Under the pieces are notes generated by a model. It was not told the origin of the DNA. It did no database searches and was given only the letters and a program-made list of their open reading frames with translations. Position numbers and translations under genes: made by a program. From positions 1 through 51,259 of the forward strand of contig JBDRGF010000122.1 in assembly GCA_043818055.1 (NCBI GenBank): a stretch of 51,259 bases of DNA. The letters run 5' to 3'. The stretch is from Pseudomonadota bacterium (lineage in GTDB: Bacteria > UBA10199 > 2-02-FULL-44-16 > JBDRGF01). Below are positions 1-12,477 of the stretch, piece by piece. Every line of letters begins with the position of its first letter. The first letter of the stretch is position 1.

Positions 1-1076
1 TCAAACTCCATGCTGTCGAAGATGTTCTCTATTTTGCCATGACCATATTTCTGAGCTTTGCCAGAGTCGAAGAGATCAAATCCTGTGGCAAGAACTACTG
101 CTCCGACCTTAATTTCTATCTCTTCATCCTTGTCATCGAGATTGATGCATCCGAAGGGGCATGCACTCACGCATTTTGCACACTCCTTTCCGTTCAGATG
201 CAGGCAGTTCTCTTTGTCGATCACCGCAACATTTGGAAGGGATCCCGGATAGGGAATGTAAATCGCCCTTCTCTCATCGAGCGATTCGTTGAATTCATTT
301 TTGACCTTTACCGGGCAAATCTCAATACACTGGCCGCATCCGATACAGGTTGAAGTGTCGACATAGCGGGCCTTCTTGTTGATCCTTGCTACAAAATTGC
401 CGTATGAGCCGAGCAGCTCAGTCACCTCGCTGTATGTGTATAGATCGATCGATTTGTTATGGAGGACATCGTCCATAACAGGATCGAGCATACAGGAGGC
501 GCATTCCATGTTGGGAAAGAGGTTCTCAAATCTGGCTACTTTGCCACCTATACAGGGAGATCTCTCAACGAGATATACTTTGCGATTCTTCTGCGCCAGA
601 GTCAAAGCGGACTTCATGCCGGCTACTCCCGCACCGACTACAAGGACTTCCGGGCAGATATCTATCTCCTTGATCTCAAGCGGTTCATGGAGCACCACAC
701 GCGCTACGGCGGCTTTGACGACCGATTTGGCCTTAGTTAACGCCTCGCCTTTGTCGGAGATTACCCATGCGCACTGTTCACGAATGTTGGCTATCTGTAA
801 GAGAAATGGATTTAATCCTGCATCTTTCAAGATTTTGTGAAAAGTCAATTCGTGCTCTTTGGGGGAGCATGCTGCGATGACGACTCTCGTCAGGGAATTA
901 TTTTTGATCTCCTCTGAAACTAGCTTTTGGCCATCCAGAGAGCAGACAAGATTGATGCGCTTGACAAAGACTACATGCTCGAGCTTCTGCACAAACTGCA
1001 ACAGCTCATCGAGTTCGATCCTATCTTTGATATTAGGACCGCATTCACATAGAAAAACCCCGACTCTCTCCCCCAT
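1..1076 (-). CDS. hdrA: Heterodisulfide reductase subunit A-like flavoprotein (HdrA family), 3' end runs off the window edge
   Basis: Not in the ORF track because there is no stop in the window. My translation from ATG 1076 (RBS AGGAGA at 1081-1086) gives MGERVGVFLCECGPNI...IAACSP...NIREQCAWV...LVVGAGVAG (FAD binding)...PNMECASC...CIGCGQCIEICP...CLHLNGKECAKCVSACP...VGAVVLATGFD. These are typical HdrA motifs. Confidence 0.93.
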   Translation of the reverse strand, partial: MGERVGVFLCECGPNIKDRIELDELLQFVQKLEHVVFVKRINLVCSLDGQKLVSEEIKNNSLTRVVIAACSPKEHELTFHKILKDAGLNPFLLQIANIREQCAWVISDKGEALTKAKSVVKAAVARVVLHEPLEIKEIDICPEVLVVGAGVAGMKSALTLAQKNRKVYLVERSPCIGGKVARFENLFPNMECASCMLDPVMDDVLHNKSIDLYTYSEVTELLGSYGNFVARINKKARYVDTSTCIGCGQCIEICPVKVKNEFNESLDERRAIYIPYPGSLPNVAVIDKENCLHLNGKECAKCVSACPFGCINLDDKDEEIEIKVGAVVLATGFDLFDSGKAQKYGHGKIENIFDSMEF

Positions 1077-1101
1077 AACATCTCCTGATTTCAAATCCGT
1101 T

Positions 1102-1264
1102 TGTCATTCTGAGCGAAGAGACTGTGTCGCAATTAGGATTTTGTATGTTCTGTCATTCTGAGCGTAGCGAAGAATCTTGTAATTTCTAACACTTAAGATC
1201 CTTCACTGCGTTCAGGATGACACCAAAAAACAATTACAACACAGTATCTGCGCTCAGCATGACA
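1102..1264. mobile_element. Nested palindromic element: MITE-like unit (about 1117-1249) inside a TGTCATTCTGAGCG...CGCTCAGCATGACA palindrome
   Basis: Outer arms TGTCATTCTGAGCG (1102) and CGCTCAGCATGACA (1264). Inner ends AGAGACTGTGTCGCAATT and AATTACAACACAGTATCT. Internal palindrome TGTCATTCTGAGCGTAGCGAAGAATC...GATCCTTCACTGCGTTCAGGATGACA at 1151-1222. Confidence 0.75.
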
Positions 1265-1273
1265 TCAATATTA

Positions 1274-1519
1274 TTACTCCACTTCCAAAGAATCGATTAT
1301 TATCTTATTTCCATCGACCGCAGTTACCTGAAGCTTTGCCCCCTCAAGGACTGTATTTTTTGCAAAATCATTGAACCAGAAGTTCAAAGATTCCTCTGAA
1401 ATTCTTAATCCATCGCCTAATGTAATGAAGATTTTAGTAGGTTTTTCAGTCAGTTTTTTGGATTCGATTCTTTCAAGCAATTCTTTAACAAGGTTTTGAA
1501 CGATTCCGACTTCATGCAT
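1274..1519 (-). CDS. hypA: Minimal HypA/HybF-like nickel metallochaperone lacking the zinc-finger domain
   Basis: N-terminal MHE nickel motif, I.ITLG...I.EESL.F.F....K.T.LEGAKL, and C-terminal G.KIIIDSLEVE strand. There are no cysteines, so the two CxxC motifs are absent. Confidence 0.82.
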   Translation of the reverse strand: MHEVGIVQNLVKELLERIESKKLTEKPTKIFITLGDGLRISEESLNFWFNDFAKNTVLEGAKLQVTAVDGNKIIIDSLEVE

Positions 1520-1534
1520 AATGTCCCCCCTTCA

Positions 1535-1671
1535 TTAGATGATGTGTCACAATTAGGATTTTGTGCGTGCTGTCATTCTGAGCGAAGCGAAGAATCTTTT
1601 TATTTCTAACACTTAAGATCCTTCACTACGTTCAGGATGACACCAAAAGACAATTGCGATACAGTCTCTAA
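1535..1671. mobile_element. Second copy of the ~135 bp MITE-like element carrying a TGTC-type palindrome
   Basis: Near-identical to 1117-1249. The right end AATTGCGATACAGTCTCT is the reverse complement (one mismatch) of the left end of copy 1, AGAGACTGTGTCGCAATT. Confidence 0.75.
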
Positions 1672-1699
1672 GTCGCTAGCTTTTATATCACTTTTAATA

Positions 1700-3085
1700 T
1701 TAAAAATAAACATCTCTTTTGCCTTTTTCAATAGCGCTCAGCCCCTTTAGAATTTTGGATTTCATATCAGGGAGCGTGACTTTTTCCAGCTCCCTATTGA
1801 TGAGCCTCTTTCCTGATTCAATCAGCGCATTATCTCCATAATCTACTATAAACTCCTTAAATGTGAGGATGGCGTTAGGGGTGCAATAATTGTGGATTGA
1901 TGCTGTTTTAGCTAACTTCATAAATCGTTCCCCTGTTCGTTCGCTTCTGTAACAAGCAGTACAAAAGCTGGGCATATATCCCCTGCCCGTGACCTCCTTG
2001 ACGACGTCGAGCAGCGTTCTCTGATCGTAGAGAGAGAACTGTTCCGAGTTTGCTTTGCTCACCCCTGAATATTCACCGGGCCCGGTGCGCGATCCGGCGC
2101 TGATCTGCGAAATGCCAAGGCCGAACATCCTGTTTCGAAGTTCGGCACTTTCGCGCGTGGATAGGATGATCCCCGTATATGGAATCGCGAGGCGAATTAT
2201 GGCGGTTAACTTTAAAAAATCAGTGTCAGATACCGCATGAGGCGGATTTATGGTCTCTTGAGCCCCAAGGGCAGGCTTAATCCTTGGAATCGAGACCGTA
2301 TGTGGCCCGAAGCCAAACTTCCTTTCAAGATAGTTGGCATGTGTTAGAAGGGCTAATACATCAAACTTGTAATCGTAGAGGCCAAAAAGGACTCCCAGAC
2401 CGACATCATCGATGCCTCCCGAGATAGCCTCATCCATTGCAAAAAGGCGCCCCTTATAGTCCGATTTTGGGCCGGATGGATGCATCTTATTATAGGTTTC
2501 CCGATGGTAGGTCTCCTGAAATAGCTGATATGTGCCAATTCCAGCTTCTTTAAGACGCTTGAAATTATCAACGCTCATCGGCGGGAGGTTGATATTTATC
2601 CTGTTGATTCTGGATCCAGAGCGCTCAAAACGATAAATAGCGTCGATTATCCCTTCTAATTGTTCAATATTGGCTCTCACGGGGTCATCTCCAGCGACGA
2701 GAAGCACCCTTTTATGACCCTGGGAGAGCAAGATCGAGACCTGATTTAATATCTCTTCTGTGGAAAGCGAAACCCTCTGCAAGCTTTCATTATCCTTTTG
2801 AAAGGCGCAATAGCGACAGCTGTTCTGGCATCTGTTGGTGATGTAGAGGGGGGCGAAGAGCACCAGCCTGTTTTTATAAATTGAATCCTTGATCTTAGAT
2901 GCCGCGGAAAAGAGCAACTCGAGGATATCCTCATCATCGTTGTGCAGCAAAATAGCGGCATCATTCAGGCTTAGTCCTTCGAGCTTTAGGGCTTTTTGAA
3001 TAACGCCCTCGGCCATGCTTTTAGAAGAAGTCTTAGCATCGTCAAGCATTGACTGAATTATGTTCTCATCTATAAATGGCTTCAT
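1700..3085 (-). CDS. hydG: [FeFe]-hydrogenase H-cluster radical SAM maturase HydG
   Basis: LFAPLY..N.CQNSCRYC (CX3CX2C), YQLFQETY, GPHTVSIPR (His ligand of the dangler Fe), ILSTRE, and C-terminal PSFCTACYR-X-C with exact CX2CX22C spacing, which ThiH lacks. Confidence 0.93.
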   Translation of the reverse strand: MKPFIDENIIQSMLDDAKTSSKSMAEGVIQKALKLEGLSLNDAAILLHNDDEDILELLFSAASKIKDSIYKNRLVLFAPLYITNRCQNSCRYCAFQKDNESLQRVSLSTEEILNQVSILLSQGHKRVLLVAGDDPVRANIEQLEGIIDAIYRFERSGSRINRININLPPMSVDNFKRLKEAGIGTYQLFQETYHRETYNKMHPSGPKSDYKGRLFAMDEAISGGIDDVGLGVLFGLYDYKFDVLALLTHANYLERKFGFGPHTVSIPRIKPALGAQETINPPHAVSDTDFLKLTAIIRLAIPYTGIILSTRESAELRNRMFGLGISQISAGSRTGPGEYSGVSKANSEQFSLYDQRTLLDVVKEVTGRGYMPSFCTACYRSERTGERFMKLAKTASIHNYCTPNAILTFKEFIVDYGDNALIESGKRLINRELEKVTLPDMKSKILKGLSAIEKGKRDVYF

Positions 3086-4257
3086 AAGCTTAAGTCGGTA
3101 GGCGCCCTTCCCAATTCATGCAGCAGATTGATCGTCTCATCAATCTGGATTTTCAGGTCCTTATCATACCCATATTTTTTAGGATAGATCGAGTAGAGTT
3201 TTTTATATTTTTCCGGCGTAACATTGAGCATGAGAGAATTGGCACCTGATAGGAGCGCTTTTTTTCTTGCTTTAGGATCCAATGTTTCAAGGGCTGTTGT
3301 GACAACGATGTTGGAATCCTCTTTCATCATACGCGTTCTTGCAAGATGCTCGATGATCATTTCTGGATTAGGTGATTTCGTATTTTCAAATGGGGTCGTG
3401 GGGGCCGGTATCAGAGGGCCGAATGAATACATCTCAGGATTGAGCGATAGAGCGCATTTGATATCGTTCAGGTGATCTTCAACCGAAGCATCGGGGAGAC
3501 CCAAAATTGAACCGGTGATGAGTGCGTATCCGATCCTTTTCAGTTCCGAAATTAGTTTTAGCCTGGTTTCTAGTTTAAACCCGGGGCGGGATTTTGCGTA
3601 AATATTAGGGTTTGAAGTTTCAAACCTTAAGAGCACTCCTCTGGCGCCGGCTTTGTAAAACTTCTGGTATAGCTTCAGCGGAAATTCACCTATGCTCAAA
3701 AAGATCAGCACTGGGAAACGGTTGCGGATTGTTGCTATCAGATCTGCAAAAACATCATTTATAAGATCGGGATCCTCTCCTGATTGTAAAACCAGGGCCT
3801 TGAAACCAAATTCATTCGCGGCTCTATCGACAGATGCGAGAATTTTTTCATCTGACATGCGATATCTCTCTATACTTTTATTATCCTTTCTGATGCCGCA
3901 ATAATGACAGTTGTTTCGGCAAAAGTTAGATATTTCCAGTATTCCATGCACGCAACATGAATTGCCGATTGTTTTGTGCCTGATATGATTGGCCTTGGAT
4001 GTGAGGGTCGAACCCGTTTGAGAAAGCTGCAAATCCTGTTTGTCGAGCTCTTTGAAGAGTTCTTTCCAGACCTCTAATATTTTAAGGGCTTCTTTGGCTG
4101 TGATCTTCGATATTACAAACCCACCCTGCGCATATACATAATCGCCTAATTCAAGCTTTTCAAAATCGTTTCTTGCTCGTTTAACAGAATCAAAATACTC
4201 GATCGATACGATGTTATTTTTAATCTCGACAACTTTTCCGGGTATTGAGTAGCACAT
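3082..4257 (-). CDS. HypC/HupF-domain - HydE-like radical SAM fusion protein
   Basis: Residues 1-70 (MCYSIPGKVVEI...GDYVYAQGGFVISKI...EA..IL) match the HypC pattern. The rest has ISNFCRNNCHYCGIR, LQSGED, LLRFET, GLP, GPLIPAPTTPF, TTAL.TL, GANSLMLNVTP and YSIY, all HydE-like. The stop overlaps the hydG start (ATGA). Confidence 0.88.
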   Translation of the reverse strand: MCYSIPGKVVEIKNNIVSIEYFDSVKRARNDFEKLELGDYVYAQGGFVISKITAKEALKILEVWKELFKELDKQDLQLSQTGSTLTSKANHIRHKTIGNSCCVHGILEISNFCRNNCHYCGIRKDNKSIERYRMSDEKILASVDRAANEFGFKALVLQSGEDPDLINDVFADLIATIRNRFPVLIFLSIGEFPLKLYQKFYKAGARGVLLRFETSNPNIYAKSRPGFKLETRLKLISELKRIGYALITGSILGLPDASVEDHLNDIKCALSLNPEMYSFGPLIPAPTTPFENTKSPNPEMIIEHLARTRMMKEDSNIVVTTALETLDPKARKKALLSGANSLMLNVTPEKYKKLYSIYPKKYGYDKDLKIQIDETINLLHELGRAPTDLSL

Positions 4258-4260
4258 AAG

Positions 4261-4324
4261 TGTAGGGGCAGGTTTAAAACCTGCCCTATTCCATTTTTGG
4301 GCGGGTTTGAAACCCGCCCCTACA
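4261..4324. repeat. GTAG-type REP dimer
   Basis: TGTAGGGGCAGGTTTAAAACCTGCCC ... GGGCGGGTTTGAAACCCGCCCCTACA: two hairpins in inverted orientation. Confidence 0.85.
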
Positions 4325-4331
4325 AAAATTG

Positions 4332-4781
4332 TTAAATCGATTGTAAAATGTCGTTCCAGGATTTGTCGAGATCGTTTGCAATACGAACTCCGAGCTTATT
4401 CAGATCATCAATAAGTTTCTTGTCGTCATCCCCGCGTATATTCGAAATTTGATCTGCTATCGAATCAGTGACAAACTGAACAACCTTGTATTTCATTTTT
4501 TGGGCTTTTCTTTCACACAATTTCAAAATTGCTTCATCGCTCAATAAGGAGTCTGCGATCAGCTTTATGTTTTCGGAATATTCCATTGAGAAATTTAAGG
4601 ACTTATTGATTTTCTCTTTATCATCTCCGTACAAGCCGTCGAGAACCTGGCTGATAGACTCTTTTATCACAAATAAATTTGAACGAAGTTCATGTCTTAC
4701 AAAGGAGAGATATTCCGGGATTGAGGCGTCCCCCTTTGGTTTTATTCCCTGCAATTTCTCGTTATATAATTTTGTGTTCAC
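4332..4781 (-). CDS. Small protein with a HisKA (DHp)-like H-box and no ATPase domain
   Basis: EYLSFVRHELRSNLFVIKESISQVLDG resembles an H-box. The GTG start overlaps the cheR stop (GTGA). Confidence 0.6.
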   Translation of the reverse strand: MNTKLYNEKLQGIKPKGDASIPEYLSFVRHELRSNLFVIKESISQVLDGLYGDDKEKINKSLNFSMEYSENIKLIADSLLSDEAILKLCERKAQKMKYKVVQFVTDSIADQISNIRGDDDKKLIDDLNKLGVRIANDLDKSWNDILQSI

Positions 4782-6265
4782 AATGCTCCTTTCAATAAAT
4801 GTTCGATCTCAGATATATAATTCCGACATGTTTCCATGAGAATGTCACGGGTAAAATCAGGTCCATATTGTATTTTTCCTGCGACATCCAACTTCTCCAT
4901 AATTTGCAAAGCATTTTTGAATTCTCTCAAGGCCTTTTTATATTCTTTTAGATATAGATATATGGTTCCAAGATTAAAATAGGCTAGCTCAATATTTGCA
5001 TCGATATATAACACTTTTCTAAAGTTTTCCTCAGCTTCTGTAAGGTTTCCTAACCTGTATTCGACAACGCCTAAAAGATAATGCGCATCCATAGAGAGAT
5101 TATTTTTCGCTATAATTTTGTTTAAAATATCGCAGGCATTTTCATAATCTTCCTGATTAGAAAGTATTTCTGCTCTAAGAAACAACGCCTTTTCATCATC
5201 ATATTTGTTCTTTAAAATCTCATCGATGAGCTGGTTAGATTCGGCATATTCTCTCTTATTGTAATGTTCGAAAGCTTTCTGAAAGAGAACCTGATTTTCA
5301 ATATTATTCGCGGAAACAACTTCTTTTGTGGGAAAAACGATATCGCTCACTTTTTTAGGATGCTCCTTGAATTGACTTGAGATTTCAGGAAAGGAAATGA
5401 ATGGTTTAAAAGACTCCTCTTCGTCATCGAAACTCTTTTCATATATATATGTCGTTGGAAACATTCTCACTTTAAATCTTGTGGGCTTTTGCCACAGAGA
5501 CTCTGAATGGCCAAGAAATAGATATCCCACATCGGATAGACAATCATAGAAAAAATCTATCAATCTCTGGGATATTTCAGGTTTAAAATATATTGTGACA
5601 TTGCGACAAAAGATTATGTCGAGATTGCTGAATGTCTCATCGTCAAAGTCGGGTTTGGTAAGATTTTGATATTTGAAAACGACCATTCTTTTTATTTTTT
5701 CAGATAACAGATATGTATCGTTTTTTTTCGTAAAGTATTTTTTGATATATTCTTCCGGAATATTTTCCACGCTCCTTTTTGAGTATTCACCCTTTTCAGC
5801 AAATTTCAAAGCCTGCTTGTTGATGTCAGTTCCAAATATACGTATTTTCCAATCTTTTGGGAATTCCAGAGTTTCCAAAACCGCGATCGCTATTGAATAA
5901 GGCTCATCTCCACGGGAACATCCGGCCGACCATATTTGCAATTCCTTAGATGAGGAGCTTGCTTTTCGTTTGTAAATTTCTGGCAGAATATTTTTTATAA
6001 GTACTTCAATCTGAGGGCTGTTTCTAAAAAAATATGTTTCACCTATTACTATATCTTCAATCAGCTGGGTGAGCTCCTCCGGGCTTGTTTTCAAAAGTGA
6101 GTAAAACTCCATGAAAGAGTTGATTTTATTTATCGACATTCTGGAAAGAAGAATCGAATCAAGTATGTCTTTTCTGTTCTTGTCGAACGATATTCCGGAT
6201 TCTTCAAGCAACAGCGCGTTGAACAGATTAAACTCTGCATCATTGGATTGTTTAGCTGTGGTCAT
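4778..6265 (-). CDS. cheR: CheR-type methyltransferase with C-terminal TPR repeats (WspC-like)
   Basis: ETYFFRN, IWSAGCSRGDEPYS, GTDIN, IIFCRNV.IYF and LFLGHSES, plus a C-terminal TPR (AHYLLG...AYFNLG). Confidence 0.93.
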   Translation of the reverse strand: MTTAKQSNDAEFNLFNALLLEESGISFDKNRKDILDSILLSRMSINKINSFMEFYSLLKTSPEELTQLIEDIVIGETYFFRNSPQIEVLIKNILPEIYKRKASSSSKELQIWSAGCSRGDEPYSIAIAVLETLEFPKDWKIRIFGTDINKQALKFAEKGEYSKRSVENIPEEYIKKYFTKKNDTYLLSEKIKRMVVFKYQNLTKPDFDDETFSNLDIIFCRNVTIYFKPEISQRLIDFFYDCLSDVGYLFLGHSESLWQKPTRFKVRMFPTTYIYEKSFDDEEESFKPFISFPEISSQFKEHPKKVSDIVFPTKEVVSANNIENQVLFQKAFEHYNKREYAESNQLIDEILKNKYDDEKALFLRAEILSNQEDYENACDILNKIIAKNNLSMDAHYLLGVVEYRLGNLTEAEENFRKVLYIDANIELAYFNLGTIYLYLKEYKKALREFKNALQIMEKLDVAGKIQYGPDFTRDILMETCRNYISEIEHLLKGAL

Positions 6266-6741
6266 TTTACCATCCCTGACAGAAGATTAGCCTCATCTTT
6301 ATTAAGGACAGTGTCGAGGTTCAACAATATAATAACCCTTTTGCCAATCCTGACAACTCCATCGATGCAATCGCTCTCAGAGAAGTTGTTGAGAAGGTCG
6401 GGCTTAGGATCTACACTCTTATTTGCAAGGTCCACTACATCTTTCACGGCATCGACTATCAAACCGATAATATAATGTTTTATTTGGCAAATTAAGATTC
6501 GATTATGAAAAGATTTATTTGCTGCGACTTTGAACCTCTTTCTCATGTCCATGATGATGATAGATTTTCCCCTGAGATTGATTACACCTTCTATAAAATC
6601 CGGCGCTCCAGGAAGTGTGTGTATCTGTTGTGGCATCAGAACCTCTCTGACATGCTTAACCGCTATACCCAGTTCTTCGCCAAGCATTTCAATAACCACA
6701 ATATCGCCTGCTGATCCTATTTTGGTATAATCGAAAGTCAT
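6262..6741 (-). CDS. cheW: CheW coupling protein
   Basis: VREVL...LPGAPDFIEGVINLRG...GLIVDAV...GVVRIG.R.IILL. Confidence 0.92.
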   Translation of the reverse strand: MTFDYTKIGSAGDIVVIEMLGEELGIAVKHVREVLMPQQIHTLPGAPDFIEGVINLRGKSIIIMDMRKRFKVAANKSFHNRILICQIKHYIIGLIVDAVKDVVDLANKSVDPKPDLLNNFSESDCIDGVVRIGKRVIILLNLDTVLNKDEANLLSGMVK

Positions 6742-6757
6742 TCTATCGCATTTCCTT

Positions 6758-7810
6758 TCATTTACATAATTGCTTAATTATTATTTCTGCTATCTTTTTG
6801 CCGGGGAGAACAAAATCAATAACTCCCATCTCTATTGCCGCTTTAGGCATCCCAAATACTACTGAAGTCTCTTCATCCTGAGCGATCGTCAGTCCTCCCT
6901 TTTCTTTGATGGCCTTTATTCCGGATGCTCCATCTTCACCCATACCTGTCAAAATTACGCCAATAGCCTTTTCCCCATAAACCTTTGCAACAGAATGCAA
7001 TAATATGTTTCCAGGTTTATTATTATTTTCATCGACAATCGATATCAGCTTGATCGACATATCTTCGGCTATAATCATGTTAAAATTTGCAGGGGCAAAA
7101 TAAATGACGCCTCCCATCAATTTTTCATTATCTTCTGCTAATTTTACCTTTATTTTACACTTTGACTGGAGCCATGAGACTAATTCTTTAAGAAAAGATT
7201 CGGATATATGCTGCACTACAACAACCGGACATCTGAGATGCGTGGGAAGTTCTTCAAAGATTGAGGCGAGTTCCTTAGGACCGCCTGTGGAGGTTACGAT
7301 TGCGATAATTTTATATGTTGTAGAGTTTATCTGATGATAATGAAATAATTTGTCCTGTTCTTCAATTCTTGCAAGAGGGTGTCGAATAACTTTTACTTTG
7401 CTAGAGTCTTTGATCAACTTGAGAAATGCAGGAATCAGCTTTTGATTGGATAGCATTGTAGCTTCATCGTTGGTAACAATATCGATAACACCATAAGAAA
7501 TAGCGTTGATCAGCTTAGTTTTGTCAATTTTTGAATTTGAATATGGAACTGCTAATATTGGCACCGGCCTATAGGCCATGATCTTTTTGATAATCAGATA
7601 ATCGTCATGCACAGACATCAAATCGTCAATAATTATGACATCTGGCTTATGTTCTACAAGAGAGGATATAATATCCCTTGGCAACGACAGCTCTGCAAGA
7701 AGTACAATATCTTTATCTTTTTCCAAAATTCTTTTGATCGACTCTATAAAAGATAGTGTCGAACCTATTATTATCACCTTTATATTATTTTTGTTTAGGT
7801 CTGTAGTCAT
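6758..7810 (-). CDS. cheB: CheB methylesterase with a degenerate N-terminal receiver domain
   Basis: Catalytic motifs TSTGGP, VQHI and LTGMGEDGA, plus AQDE.TSVVFGMP. The N-terminal REC-like domain lacks the usual acidic pair and Lys. Confidence 0.92.
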   Translation of the reverse strand: MTTDLNKNNIKVIIIGSTLSFIESIKRILEKDKDIVLLAELSLPRDIISSLVEHKPDVIIIDDLMSVHDDYLIIKKIMAYRPVPILAVPYSNSKIDKTKLINAISYGVIDIVTNDEATMLSNQKLIPAFLKLIKDSSKVKVIRHPLARIEEQDKLFHYHQINSTTYKIIAIVTSTGGPKELASIFEELPTHLRCPVVVVQHISESFLKELVSWLQSKCKIKVKLAEDNEKLMGGVIYFAPANFNMIIAEDMSIKLISIVDENNNKPGNILLHSVAKVYGEKAIGVILTGMGEDGASGIKAIKEKGGLTIAQDEETSVVFGMPKAAIEMGVIDFVLPGKKIAEIIIKQLCK

Positions 7811-7820
7811 AAGATTTTCG

Positions 7821-10013
7821 TCATCCGATCAATCTGTCAATTGTATCCATGAGATTAGTTTGATCAAAGGAACCCTTTACAATATAAGCAGATCCTCCGG
7901 CTTCAATTCCTCTTTTTTTGTCTTCATTTTTTTCAAGCGCTGTGACAAATATAATAGGTATATTTTCATCTCTTTTGTTCTTCCTGATCAATGCACATAG
8001 CTCAAAGCCGTTCATCCTTGGCATCAATATGTCCGTGATGATTAGATCAAATGACTCGTCATTGAACTTATCCATAGCATCCATTCCATCGATTGCGGCT
8101 GTGACTTCGAATCCCTTTGTTTTAAGGATTGTACTCATGAGTTGTCTTGTGGAGAGTACGTTTTCGACAATGAGTATTCTTTTGCCCTGCCTCAACTTGC
8201 TTTGCAAAGGCTTCTTCTCAAGTAGAGCAGGATGGCACATATCACTTCGCCTGATTAAATCTCCTACATCCAAAATTACAATGACATCTCCCGTACCCAA
8301 TATTGCAGCTCCGGCAACATTATCAACCTTCCCAAGATGAGGGCCCAGGCTCTTTATAAAAATCTCCTCCTCACCGCAGATTTCGTCGACTATAAATCCA
8401 ACCTCTTTATCAAGCGAGGATGTAATTATAATATTAGCCTCATCTGAATTACCTTTTTCAGTTTTTTCATTCTCTTTTGGCAATGCGAGAATATCTCTTA
8501 AATTAGCAAGCGGCAGCAGGCGGTCTCTGATGCTTACTGCCATTTTGCCTTCCAGATGTGACATCTCACTTAGTTTAATTTTCAGACATTCGTTGACAGA
8601 ATACATTGGGACGCCAAAGATCAATCCCCCTGATTTGACCAGAAGAACCTGGATGATAGCTATCGTTAACGGCAAAACAATTTTGAATGCCGTGCCCTCA
8701 TCTTTTACTGAATCAAGTATGATCTGTCCTTTCAACAGTTCAATCTCTCTTTTGGCTATATCAAGACCGATTCCTCGTCCTGATACATCAGTAATGATTG
8801 GGCTGGTGGAAAAACCATCCATAAAGACCATATTGACAATCTCTTTCCCGGTCATCTCACTTAACTTGTCATTGGAAATGAGATTTTTTTGGATGAGAAT
8901 GTTTTTGATATTTTCCGGATCTATCCCTGACCCATCATCCTTTATTTCTATCAAGACATTTCCGGCCTGATGATAGGCATGAATAGTGATGTTGCCTGAT
9001 TTGGGTTTGCTTTTTTTTAGCCTTACATCAGAAGATTCAATGCCGTGATCTATACAGTTGCGCACAATATGCATGATGGGAGTCTTAATACCCTCCAGAA
9101 CTTTTTTATCGAGTTCTGTCTCCTCTCCAATGATATTGAGATTTACCTCTTTTTCTTCCTGAGTTGCAATATCCCTGACCATTCGGGGGTAATTTTGAAA
9201 AATAGTGGAAAGCGGCAACATCCTCAGCTTCTTCGTTTCACTCTGAAGCTCTTCTACTACGGGTTCCAACTGAAGAACATCTATGGATATTTCGTCATAA
9301 AGGGTCGTTGAAACATCTTTGAGTTTAAAAAGTTTCGATGTGCACTGACTTAGTATATTCATAATCTCAGAATCAGCAGGAATATCAAAGGCGTTGAGTT
9401 TGTCGGTTAAAGTGATTATGTTCTTTGATAAATCGGAGGAGAGTTGTGAGGCCTTTTTTGCATGTGATAATCTATGAGGATTGCGCATCTTATTTATCAC
9501 CAGCTCCCCAACCAGATTGAGCAACATTCCAACTCTTGATGAGGGGATTCGTATATAATCATCAATTCCCCCTTCAGAGACTTTCTCTTTGGTCATTTCC
9601 GTGGCTGGAATATTTTTTTTGAGCTTTCCTTTGCTGGGAGTGTTTTTTTCTGCAAGGCAGGAATCAAGCAATGAAAATGTTTCAGTGATGTCTATCTCTT
9701 TGTCGACTAGTGTATTCCTGATCACATCAAGGGAAGCAAAAATTGCATTTGCTATCTTCGGGGAAAATTTTATTTTCTTATTTAAAAGTTTTTCAAAAAT
9801 ATCTTCAATTTTGTGTGCAACATCCTGAATCTTGTTATATCCAAATACTCTCGCAGAGCCCTTCACTGTATGCGCAATTCTGTTCATCTCCTTGACGAGC
9901 CTGAGATCTGCCGGCTTTTTCTCGAGTTTGACCAGGGCGCGGTCGAGTATTGTAAGGTTATCTTCAATCTCAGCCCTGAATATCGCTATCAGATCTTTAC
10001 TGATTTCTGTCAT
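7821..10013 (-). CDS. cheA: Hybrid CheA histidine kinase (Hpt-dimer-HATPase-CheW-REC; WspE-like)
   Basis: RIAHTVKGSAR (Hpt His), HIVRNCIDHGIE, DDGSGID, SGRGIGLD, a CheW domain and C-terminal REC (ITDILMP). I moved the start to ATG 10013 (RBS AGAGGAA) because the longer ORF's 5' extension is repeat-derived. Confidence 0.93.
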   Translation of the reverse strand: MTEISKDLIAIFRAEIEDNLTILDRALVKLEKKPADLRLVKEMNRIAHTVKGSARVFGYNKIQDVAHKIEDIFEKLLNKKIKFSPKIANAIFASLDVIRNTLVDKEIDITETFSLLDSCLAEKNTPSKGKLKKNIPATEMTKEKVSEGGIDDYIRIPSSRVGMLLNLVGELVINKMRNPHRLSHAKKASQLSSDLSKNIITLTDKLNAFDIPADSEIMNILSQCTSKLFKLKDVSTTLYDEISIDVLQLEPVVEELQSETKKLRMLPLSTIFQNYPRMVRDIATQEEKEVNLNIIGEETELDKKVLEGIKTPIMHIVRNCIDHGIESSDVRLKKSKPKSGNITIHAYHQAGNVLIEIKDDGSGIDPENIKNILIQKNLISNDKLSEMTGKEIVNMVFMDGFSTSPIITDVSGRGIGLDIAKREIELLKGQIILDSVKDEGTAFKIVLPLTIAIIQVLLVKSGGLIFGVPMYSVNECLKIKLSEMSHLEGKMAVSIRDRLLPLANLRDILALPKENEKTEKGNSDEANIIITSSLDKEVGFIVDEICGEEEIFIKSLGPHLGKVDNVAGAAILGTGDVIVILDVGDLIRRSDMCHPALLEKKPLQSKLRQGKRILIVENVLSTRQLMSTILKTKGFEVTAAIDGMDAMDKFNDESFDLIITDILMPRMNGFELCALIRKNKRDENIPIIFVTALEKNEDKKRGIEAGGSAYIVKGSFDQTNLMDTIDRLIG

Positions 10014-10028
10014 TGGATATTTCCTCTG

Positions 10029-10113
10029 TGTCATTCTGAGCGACTGGCCGGCAGGAGCGAAGAATCTTGTTATTCCGAACACTCAAGATCCTTCGCTAAA
10101 GCTCAGGATGACA
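10029..10113. repeat. TGTC/CGTC-type palindromic repeat
   Basis: TGTCATTCTGAGCG...GCGAAGAATCTTG...CAAGATCCTTCGC...GCTCAGGATGACA, the same family as the core of the elements at 1151-1222 and 1571-1642. Confidence 0.8.
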
Positions 10114-10146
10114 AAAAAAGTAAATTCACTAACAGCCAAAAAATAC

Positions 10147-11577
10147 CTACAGCCTAAACTCCCTAACCGAGTTGTTCATATCTTCGGATAACTTGATCAG
10201 ATCGTTGGATGAAACAAAAGATTGTTTTGTTGATACGACAAACTGATGGGTGACAGCGTCGATGTTCTGCATCGCAGTTACTACCTGATCCGAGGCGCTT
10301 TTTTGTTGCTGGGTTGCCAGGGAGATATCTTTAGCGGCATTTGTGGTCTCCTCAACCATCTCCAGGCCCTTTCCCACCCATTTGGTTGACTCTTCAATTC
10401 CCATTATGGTCAAATTAGTCTCAGACTGCATTTCATTGATCACATTTCGAATCATCTCAGTTGATTCCGAAGACCTCTCAGCTAACTTTCTTACCTCCTG
10501 TGCAACGACTGCGAAACCACGCCCTGCCTCGCCTGCTCTCGCCGCTTCTATCGCGGCATTCAGAGCCAATAGATTTGTCTGCTCTGAAATATCATCAATG
10601 ATCCTTGTGATATTTCCAATCGACTGCGATTTTTCAGCAAGTGAGAGGATCTTTTTGGCAGTTTCATCAACCTTGTCGTTTATCGAATGCATTCCGGTTA
10701 AAGTTCTGTCCGCAATATCAGCCACACTTCCAGCCTTTAGGGCGATCTGGGACGCGGTGGATGCGAGCTCTTTGATGGTAGAAGAAACCTCTGCAACAGC
10801 TGATGACTGGACATTGGCCCCGCTCGTCTCCTGTTCCGCGTTCTTTCGTATCTCTTCACATGCCGCATTGAGATGCAGGCTGGCATCCCGCACCTTTTGC
10901 ATAAGCGAGCTTAACTTTTCAATGGTTTGATTGATCATGAACCCAAGTTTATTTAATATTTCAGTAGTAAAAGAAAAATTTGTCCTTACGGAAGAATCGC
11001 CCTGTGAAAAACGACTCAGGACCTCAAATCCCTCTGATAATCCCAATGCAAGTTCCATCGAGATATTCTCGACCTCAGTTTTCTGGGCAGCAGCAAGGTT
11101 GATCATGGCATCAAACTGATCGGAGAGGTGATCGATATCATCCCCTGAGTGTTTCAGATAGAGGATGCAATCCTTACAGTTTCCGATCTTATGGGCATAT
11201 TCGCCCTGAACGCCATCCCCACAGAGCGTACCTGCAATATACCAGCATTTGACGCCTAATTTGCCAAATGCAGGGCAGGATTCTTTATTGCAGTTTTGCT
11301 CCTTCCAACACTCAAATCCCTTTCTCAACGATTTGGTTTGTGAAAAATTCCCGCTGATTAAAACTTCGTCGATGGCCTCTGTTACTCCGTTGATGCGCTT
11401 TGAAAACTTTTTAAAAATAAGAATTGAGAAAAAAAGTGTAAAAACCAAGCCCAGACCTAACAAGAGAAGAACATCCAGATGAGGAGTGCGAAAATATTCC
11501 AATATAGCAATAAAAATAAGAAAGCTTAGCGGAACAGAGTAACCAACAGCAATGCTTTTACCATAACTCAATTTCAT
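10147..11577 (-). CDS. Methyl-accepting chemotaxis protein with a cytoplasmic Cys-rich two-CW domain
   Basis: Two N-terminal TM helices with a very short loop, then CWKEQNC...CPA...CWYIAGTLC...CKDC, then the signalling hairpin [37 protein letters not shown]. Confidence 0.92.
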
Positions 11578-11589
11578 CTAATCCCCCCT

Positions 11590-12075
11590 TCAAACCTGAT
11601 CAAAGATCTTTTTTATAGACAACATTCCGATCAACTTATTTTCAAAATTGCAAACCCCTGTGAAATATTCAGCCCTCTCAGGGGCTATCGTCAGCAAAAC
11701 CGGCTCAGTTAAACTTTTAGGTATAGCTTCTACCCGTAAAACCTCATCTACGAGAAGAGCTGTCTCTTTTTCACCCAACTCAATGACGACAAGTCTTGAG
11801 TCTTCTGTTAACTGCTCACTTTCCAAGCTTAACGCTTGCCTGATATCAGTAACCGACAGAATATTACCTTTTAAACTGATAATGCCCGCAATATTTTTTG
11901 GAGCCGAGGGCAAAAAAGTTATTTTATCTATGGTGATGATCTGTTTTACATCTAAAATATCAACGCCGAACCACTCATTTGCTAATCTGAATAATGCAAG
12001 TTCCACACATTCTTCTTTTACAGAATCATCTTTATAAAAATCATCTTCATGTATAGTTATCTTTTCTTCTTTCAT
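11590..12075 (-). CDS. cheW: CheW coupling protein
   Basis: FRLANEWFGVDI..V..I....IT.LPSAP..IAGIISLKG...LLVDEV. Confidence 0.9.
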   Translation of the reverse strand: MKEEKITIHEDDFYKDDSVKEECVELALFRLANEWFGVDILDVKQIITIDKITFLPSAPKNIAGIISLKGNILSVTDIRQALSLESEQLTEDSRLVVIELGEKETALLVDEVLRVEAIPKSLTEPVLLTIAPERAEYFTGVCNFENKLIGMLSIKKIFDQV

Positions 12076-12114
12076 GTTAATTCTAGATTCTCTTTAAATA
12101 TGTTTGTAAATGTC

Positions 12115-12477
12115 TTAATTAATATAGCCTTTTATTTTTTTAGCCAATTCCTTCCCTTCACAGGGAAGAGTTATAAACCCTTCAGCACCGGTAGTATTTA
12201 TAATATTTTTTAGTTCACTTTCCTCTTTGGCCGACATGAATAGGACTGGAATCGCTTTGGTCTCTTTGAATTTTTTTAGCTCTGCAAAAACTTTAGTGCC
12301 ATCAATTCCCGGAAGGAGAAAATCAAGGAGGATAAGCTGGTATTTTCCCGTTTTGGCCATCTTCAGGCCATCCTCACCTGTCTCAGCAAGGTCGATTTCG
12401 AAACCTTCAGGCTCTAATCTTGATTTTAAGAGAAAATTTATCGACGGGCTATCCTGAATTATTAGCAATTTATACAT
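12115..12477 (-). CDS. Single-domain response regulator (CheY-like, atypical)
   Basis: REC fold pattern LLIIQDS...LILLDFLLPGIDG...IPVLFMSA...FITLP, with RBS AAGGAGG upstream. Confidence 0.88.
   Translation of the reverse strand: MYKLLIIQDSPSINFLLKSRLEPEGFEIDLAETGEDGLKMAKTGKYQLILLDFLLPGIDGTKVFAELKKFKETKAIPVLFMSAKEESELKNIINTTGAEGFITLPCEGKELAKKIKGYIN

Follow-up and report, generated by a model that had tools for sequence, protein, structure and literature searches.

A HypC–HydE fusion protein encoded with HydG: a candidate alternative maturation module for [NiFe]-hydrogenases

Organization of the locus

The stretch of DNA analysed here (the window; 51,259 nucleotides) carries a minus-strand gene for a protein in which a HypC domain is joined to a radical SAM barrel of the HydE type (Table 1). 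The reading frame starts with an ATG at 4257 and stops at 3082, with zero internal stops along its 391 codons, while the plus-strand frame over 3082–4257 is riddled with stops. An uninterrupted in-frame join of HypC and HydE, read earlier from the sequence with no strand given, was borne out in this way and assigned to the minus strand. The inverted repeat at 4261–4324 leaves no obvious ribosome-binding site for the fusion; it is probably another dispersed repeat, because it is very deep in two runs.

The HydG of the window keeps the CX2CX22C auxiliary-cluster motif together with the GPHT motif, the His of which we take to be a ligand of the dangler iron. The short HypA retains the N-terminal MHE nickel motif, has zero cysteines and is missing the zinc domain; forms of 80–98 amino acids with 0–2 cysteines were also seen near other fusion loci. 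The hypA gene is flanked by two copies (1102–1249 and 1543–1669, 90% alike) of a palindromic repeat of about 130 nt, presumably REP- or MITE-like, which is present also at about 10030–10126 and has related copies on at least 15 other contigs. Upstream of the fusion and on the same minus strand, a chemosensory-type cluster occupies 4332–12477 (CheR-TPR by Pfam; CheW, CheB, CheA and MCP read from sequence), and no link between this cluster and the fusion was seen.

Table 1. Features of the HypC–HydE locus, with positions in the window
Feature	Position	Strand	Basis
hdrA, first 364 aa, cut by contig end	3..1094	-	profile match
Short HypA, 81 aa	1274..1519	-	PF01155 40.6 bits, cut-off 28.9
hydG, 461 aa, ATG overlapping fusion stop (ATGA)	1700..3085	-	TIGR03955 511.7 bits, cut-off 312
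hypC-hydE fusion gene, 391 aa	3082..4257	-	ORF, Pfam/TIGRFAM profiles, structure model
Met276 (=Met224), Thr321 (=Thr269), Met343 (=Met291), Tyr355-x-x-Tyr358	3184..3432	-	alignment to T. maritima HydE
CX3CX2C radical SAM cluster motif (Cys113, 117, 120)	3898..3921	-	sequence, alignment
Clade-specific Cys102-x-His104, barrel strand 1	3946..3954	-	120/120 relatives
Long linker helix, residues 54-78, HypC to barrel	4024..4098	-	model secondary structure
HypC domain, residues 1-64	4066..4257	-	PF01455 46 bits
Gln44, at HypC His place	4126-4128	-	Gln in 120/120 best relatives
Cys2 codon	4252-4254	-	kept in 120/120 best relatives
26-nt inverted repeat directly upstream of fusion start codon	4261..4324	.	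sequence

Domain structure of the fusion protein

HypC uses Cys2 to ferry Fe(CN)2CO to the large subunit of [NiFe]-hydrogenase in its apo form. The N-terminus of the fusion scores as HypC, as the sequence-only reading had it: the whole Pfam HupF_HypC model (PF01455, 1–65) was matched with 46 bits against a cut-off of 28.5 (E 6e-12), and the curated model TIGR00074 (HypC) with 42.6 bits, where 48 are required. Cys2 is present in 120 of the best 120 hits, and in 115 of these it is the second residue of the called protein. The conserved His of the VHxG hairpin is missing from the fusion family, Gln being found in its place (VYAQGG in the window's protein) in 120 of 120 close relatives. Both features, Cys2 at the true N-terminus and the change of His to Gln, had been pointed out before and were confirmed. 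The fusion shares with HypC, HybG and HupF (E. coli; T. kodakarensis PDB 2z1c, 3vyr) the full-length PF01455 domain with its N-terminal Cys2, and like them is tied to the genes for a [NiFe] large subunit, protease and HypA. In contrast to HypC of the HypCDEF scaffold, it has Gln for His51 (E. coli numbering), is joined to an enzyme of 310 residues, and is found with HypD, HypE and HypF absent.

The radical SAM model of Pfam matched residues 108–263. The best curated family for the barrel was HydE (TIGR03956). Its score of 246.5 bits falls slightly short of the cut-off of 254.6, which the scores of the fusion relatives straddle; PylB, BioB and HmdB gave 107, 72 and 41 bits, respectively. All of the radical SAM motifs named earlier, CX3CX2C, EMYSFGP, GANSLMLN and YxxY, were found in the protein. 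In a structure model based on 28 sequences (pLDDT 92.6, pTM 0.91), five strands are followed by a 25-residue helix and then by the barrel, and the best structural matches of this model were all T. maritima HydE (Foldseek E 5e-34, 38% identity). The proposal that HypC stands in place of the N-terminal helices of HydE holds for a subtype of about 392 amino acids, in which the match to the HydE model starts at position 16–28, but not for a subtype of about 430 amino acids, in which it starts at position 2–4 and the helices are kept behind HypC.

An artefact of assembly or gene calling is already refuted, and its probability is practically nil. The HypC–HydE junction is spanned without differences by contigs from public runs (3897–4198, 3627–4093 and 3936–4112), belonging to two samples of which one may be the source sample, and a total of 388 fusion stretches were confirmed in the genome collection. 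With the best 120 database hits all fused, the fusion is neither unique to this assembly nor unsupported. Nothing speaks for an artefact in the window's copy; one relative (G053) has only a broken N-terminal piece of the fusion. Contigs from an RNA library, which cannot show transcription, cover most of 1–4500 including the hydG/fusion boundary, and none covers 3901–4200.

Distribution and phylogeny

A search for the same architecture in other genomes returned both Pfam domains in each of the best 120 protein hits. The best 80 of the 388 confirmed stretches were taken for neighbourhood analysis, and the hosts of these 80 loci belong to Omnitrophota, Planctomycetota, Elusimicrobiota, Spirochaetota, Margulisiibacteriota, WOR-3 and other groups. 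A quick tree was built from 85 barrels. It places 39 fused and two unfused proteins on one branch inside HydE (SH-aLRT 100), apart from 11 ordinary HydE sequences that come from the same genomes. The earlier assignment to HydE is upheld by this tree against BioB and HydG, while PylB and HcgA are outside the tree and are excluded by HMM score only. Triple fusions of HypC, HydE and HydG were found on long contigs in two cases (P0123 and P0133; 906 and 881 amino acids). Two unfused members of the fusion clade (P0139 and P0145) carry the Cys-x-His motif.

Remodelling of the barrel

Residue equivalences were read from a profile alignment (E 3e-90) in T. maritima HydE numbering. Residue counts are given for the 120 search hits instead of the sets of 207 and 193 sequences, on which counts are partly circular because the loci were found with Cys2/Cys102/His104 patterns and “fused” was set by the Cys pattern. 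Like HydE of T. maritima (PDB 3ciw, 7o1o, 7o1t), the fusion has CX3CX2C, the SAM site, both iron-binding methionines and YxxY, and HydG as partner. The equivalents of Glu58, Gln107, Arg159, Glu161, Met291, Tyr303 and Tyr306 are kept in 120/120 relatives, and those of Met224 and Thr269 in 116/120. Unlike T. maritima HydE, it has the N-terminal HypC domain, a clade of its own and a new Cys102, gained two residues before His104 and present also in divergent and unfused clade members.

His104 takes the place of Arg54 of T. maritima HydE, and is His in all 120 relatives; among 72 HydE-like proteins without the fusion, 69 have Arg at this position. Thr134 is replaced by Ile, Phe or Val, the position being hydrophobic or Ser in the relatives with Thr in one of 120, and Arg155 by Gly, with Gly, Ala or Ser in 120/120 and Arg in none. 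Lys309 is mostly Arg (113/120), and is Lys in the window's protein. Further differences are Gly195 to Met, Phe or Ile, Pro266 to Leu or Val, and Gly226 to Ser. The ordinary HydE proteins from fusion genomes (11/11) keep Arg54, Thr134, Arg155 and Lys309. According to the available part of a QM/MM study of HydE (PMC11826987), the di-iron product has its cyanides in contact with Arg54, Thr134, Arg155 and Thr269, Met224 and Met291 are way-stations of the iron, and Lys309 is the radical relay for cysteine cleavage. Three of the four residues modelled to hold the product cyanides (Arg54, Thr134 and Arg155) are lost in the fusion barrel, and Thr269 is kept. The fused barrel is thus a remodelled HydE paralogue, which probably does not make the usual di-iron product of HydE.

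Among the top 25 pairs in a covariation analysis between HypC and the barrel, 14 were located on the strand N-terminal (exit) face, compared with 1–5 of 25 in permutations (n = 4) and 14% expected; the covariation carries much noise at an effective depth of 139, no pair is relied on individually, and the face was chosen after an earlier covariation result had been viewed. It is a weak, post hoc indication that the HypC domain may sit preferentially against this face.

Association with [NiFe]-hydrogenase

Genomes, all of them incomplete assemblies, were counted in two sets, of which two genomes are shared and within which related taxa are not independent. The first comprises 50 fusion genomes, which are those of the 80 loci with the longest contigs and which were searched as whole genomes. 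The [NiFe] large-subunit family and HydG were each detected in 50/50, HypD in 1/50, HypE over the cut-off in 1/50 and HypF over the cut-off in 0/50; a single partial HypF match is in G019, the genome that also has HypD and HypE. G019 is the sole genome of the 50 with both systems, and its hypD and hypE lie beside a different large subunit on its contig C4. The second set, an unselected control, consists of 73 genomes of the window's phylum, each at least 85% complete. [NiFe] enzymes are present in 20 of them, 11 with canonical Hyp, nine with the fusion and none with both. Free HypC, HypD and HypE were all found in 10 of the 11 canonical genomes, and the remaining one (490 contigs) has a HypE piece only; HypD and HypE were each found in 0/9 of the fusion genomes, one of which has a broken piece of the fusion. 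HydG is present in 8/9 fusion genomes and 0/11 canonical ones, and in addition in six genomes without [NiFe] enzyme. In the 53 genomes of the phylum without [NiFe] enzyme, neither a HypC domain nor HypD was found. The loss of the HypD partnership, which had been surmised from the missing His, agrees with HypD in 1/50 fusion genomes, with the split in the phylum (HypD in 0/9 fusion against 10/10 free-HypC genomes) and with the Gln in 120/120 relatives. From this near-exclusion and the co-occurrence with [NiFe] large subunits and HydG, as read in genome sequences, the fusion probably serves [NiFe] maturation in place of HypD, HypE and HypF.

The neighbourhoods of the best 80 loci contain a [NiFe] large subunit in 35, a maturation protease in 31, a HypA-like gene in 20, HypB in four, HydG in at least 41, and [FeFe] genes in four, each of the latter together with [NiFe] genes. 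By family match, the [NiFe] enzymes near the loci are of groups 3b, 3c and 4 types. The C-terminal CxxC is present in 34/35 of the nearby large subunits and the N-terminal CxxC in 30/35 by pattern, with three of the misses at locus ends, these cysteines being checked in the large subunits retrieved, not in all genomes counted. Large subunits 80–83% identical to each other occur with either machinery, and their active-site motifs are the same. All 44 HydG proteins checked from the fusion loci carry CX2CX22C, and 43 of them the His motif. HypD, HypE and HypF were absent from 69 scanned representatives of the 129 commonest neighbour clusters, and their absence as such rests on the genome searches. 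A MoeB/ThiF-like gene is located directly before hydG in four of the 80 loci (L012, L031, L046 and L055).

The fusion could also be considered an ordinary [FeFe] maturase, namely HydE with an appended HypC as a carrier replacing HydF. Databases call the relatives HydE, and an [FeFe] enzyme is encoded in the genome of the window, where neither HydF nor another HydE was found; one more genome (G025) is alike in this. This explanation is very unlikely, however: in departure from HydE, 35/50 genomes with the fusion have no HydF and no [FeFe] enzyme, and among the 15/50 with an [FeFe] enzyme a separate ordinary HydE is retained in 14 and a HydF match in 13, which are all the HydF matches of the set. 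The rarity of [FeFe] genes near the loci, always in the company of [NiFe] genes, and the loss of product-binding residues stand against it as well.

It is hardly more credible that another Fe-carbonyl cofactor or signal is made and that the nearby [NiFe] genes are co-regulated bystanders or immature relics. A total of 35 of the 80 loci have no large subunit, protease, HypA or HypB in the DNA examined around them, and the rarity of HypB nearby (4/80) fits such a product; against it, the large subunits retain both CxxC motifs, the split of the phylum between fusion and canonical Hyp is exact, and these genomes, if deprived of the fusion module, would be left with no means of making Fe(CN)2CO.

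The genome of the window

The window's assembly is 93.6% complete. Another contig of it, C83, starts with the C-terminus of HdrA, followed by mvhD, mvhG and mvhA, the last encoding a [NiFe] large subunit. The HdrA pieces on C83 and on the window's contig are the sole two in the assembly, correspond to the non-overlapping segments 1–367 and 503–660 of a relative's HdrA, and have G+C of 0.473 and 0.476. In one relative (G054), the genes hdrA-mvhD-mvhG-mvhA-protease-hypA lie beside hydG and the fusion. No overlap is shared by the ends of the two contigs, no public-run contig was seen joining them, and the tetranucleotide fit of C83 is low (0.76). Taken together, hdrA of the window probably continues on C83, which would link the fusion locus to mvhA. 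A predicted complex of the HypC domain (residues 2–80), the genome's MvhA and one iron scored 0.02 and was given no weight in either direction.

HypD, HypE, HypF, HypB, a protease, HydF, a second HydE and any other HypC were not found in the assembly; weak matches to HypE, HypF and HydF were far under the cut-offs and were dismissed as paralogues. Contig C14 (21835–25148) carries one [FeFe]-hydrogenase cluster of three subunits, the motifs of which look intact. Its presence without HydF and ordinary HydE may reflect either an orphan enzyme or an assembly gap. The missing HypB and protease, and the [FeFe] enzyme without HydF or a second HydE, count against a [NiFe] module in this genome.

Proposed route to the [NiFe] site

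Altogether it is likely that HypC–HydE and HydG form an alternative [NiFe] maturation module in place of HypC, HypD, HypE and HypF; given a role in [NiFe] maturation, the chemistry outlined here has about an even chance of being right. In canonical maturation, the iron is held between HypC Cys2, HypD Cys41 and possibly HypC His51 (PMC12134894, available part). HydG cleaves two tyrosines, which yield two CO and two CN−, and releases [Fe(CO)2(CN)(cysteinate)] (complex B) and a second cyanide (PMC11256358, available part). Both ligands of Fe(CN)2CO would thus be supplied in sufficient number. The fused barrel would take complex B from HydG. HydE binds complex B, and the 5'-deoxyadenosyl radical attacks its cysteine sulfur. 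In the fused barrel, a radical step would strip the cysteinate, and the iron would be kept mononuclear with no dimerisation. The mononuclear unit would then move down the barrel by way of Met343, Met276 and Cys102/His104 to Cys2 at the exit face, with Cys102/His104 taking over from HypD Cys41 and from the His that HypC has lost; somewhere along this route one CO would be swapped for the second cyanide of HydG. Finally, Cys2 would hand the Fe unit to the large subunit, HypA would insert nickel, and the protease would close the site.

With two CO and one CN, the product of HydG does not have the ligand ratio needed, and the chemistry known for HydE ends at Fe(I) with a sulfur, so that a ligand exchange and a re-oxidation must be assumed. 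The Arg in place of the Lys309 radical relay in most relatives counts against the proposed chemistry. The hand-over of an Fe-carbonyl to Cys2, already put forward in the sequence-only reading, is conjectural, with weak support from the covariation. That enzymes matured by the fusion end with a non-standard Fe(CO)2(CN) centre is improbable, because their large subunits share second-sphere motifs with those of HypD genomes.

With the same [NiFe] client, the barrel may instead be mainly a HypD-like scaffold: HydG would supply CO and CN−, either free or bound in a labile iron complex, Cys2 and Cys102/His104 would hold the iron between them, and the radical SAM site would only give electrons or edit a side product. 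The new invariant Cys-x-His, the loss of the HypC His and the frequent Arg at Lys309 are in line with a scaffold, and a release of CO and CN− in free form by HydG has been reported (PMC9431212, available part). On the other side, the whole upper site for SAM and complex B, including both methionines, is kept in 116–120 of 120 relatives, beyond what a scaffold needs, and the scaffold is considered unlikely.

The proposed chemistry, extended to all hosts, would represent a complete second route to the [NiFe] site across uncultured anaerobic phyla, with the diatomic ligands all derived from tyrosine by radical SAM enzymes. Carbamoyl phosphate, HypD, HypE and HypF would all be dispensable, and one HypC–HydE(–HydG) machine would load the large subunit; the balance leans somewhat towards this wider reading.

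Relation to known systems

A search of the open-access literature turned up neither the fusion nor a [NiFe] route that dispenses with HypD. The maturation pathways of [NiFe] and [FeFe] enzymes are treated as separate in the available part of PMC9431212. The parts are known and the combination is not, and in the strict sense the fusion is a member of neither the HypC nor the HydE family. It resembles HypX, the aerobic CO supplier for [NiFe] enzymes, in being an add-on with its own means of supplying a diatomic ligand (PMC12134894, available part), but HypX supplements HypCDEF, whereas the fusion module, from an unrelated sequence family, would replace HypD, HypE and HypF. If the proposal is true, tyrosine becomes a directly testable answer to the question of CO origin for the [NiFe] site, the two hydrogenase maturation pathways are linked, and a two-gene route is available for making [NiFe] enzymes. 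Many proteins annotated as HydE or HydG would be wrongly taken as markers of [FeFe]-hydrogenase; the database labels of the fusion relatives are HydE or biotin synthase.
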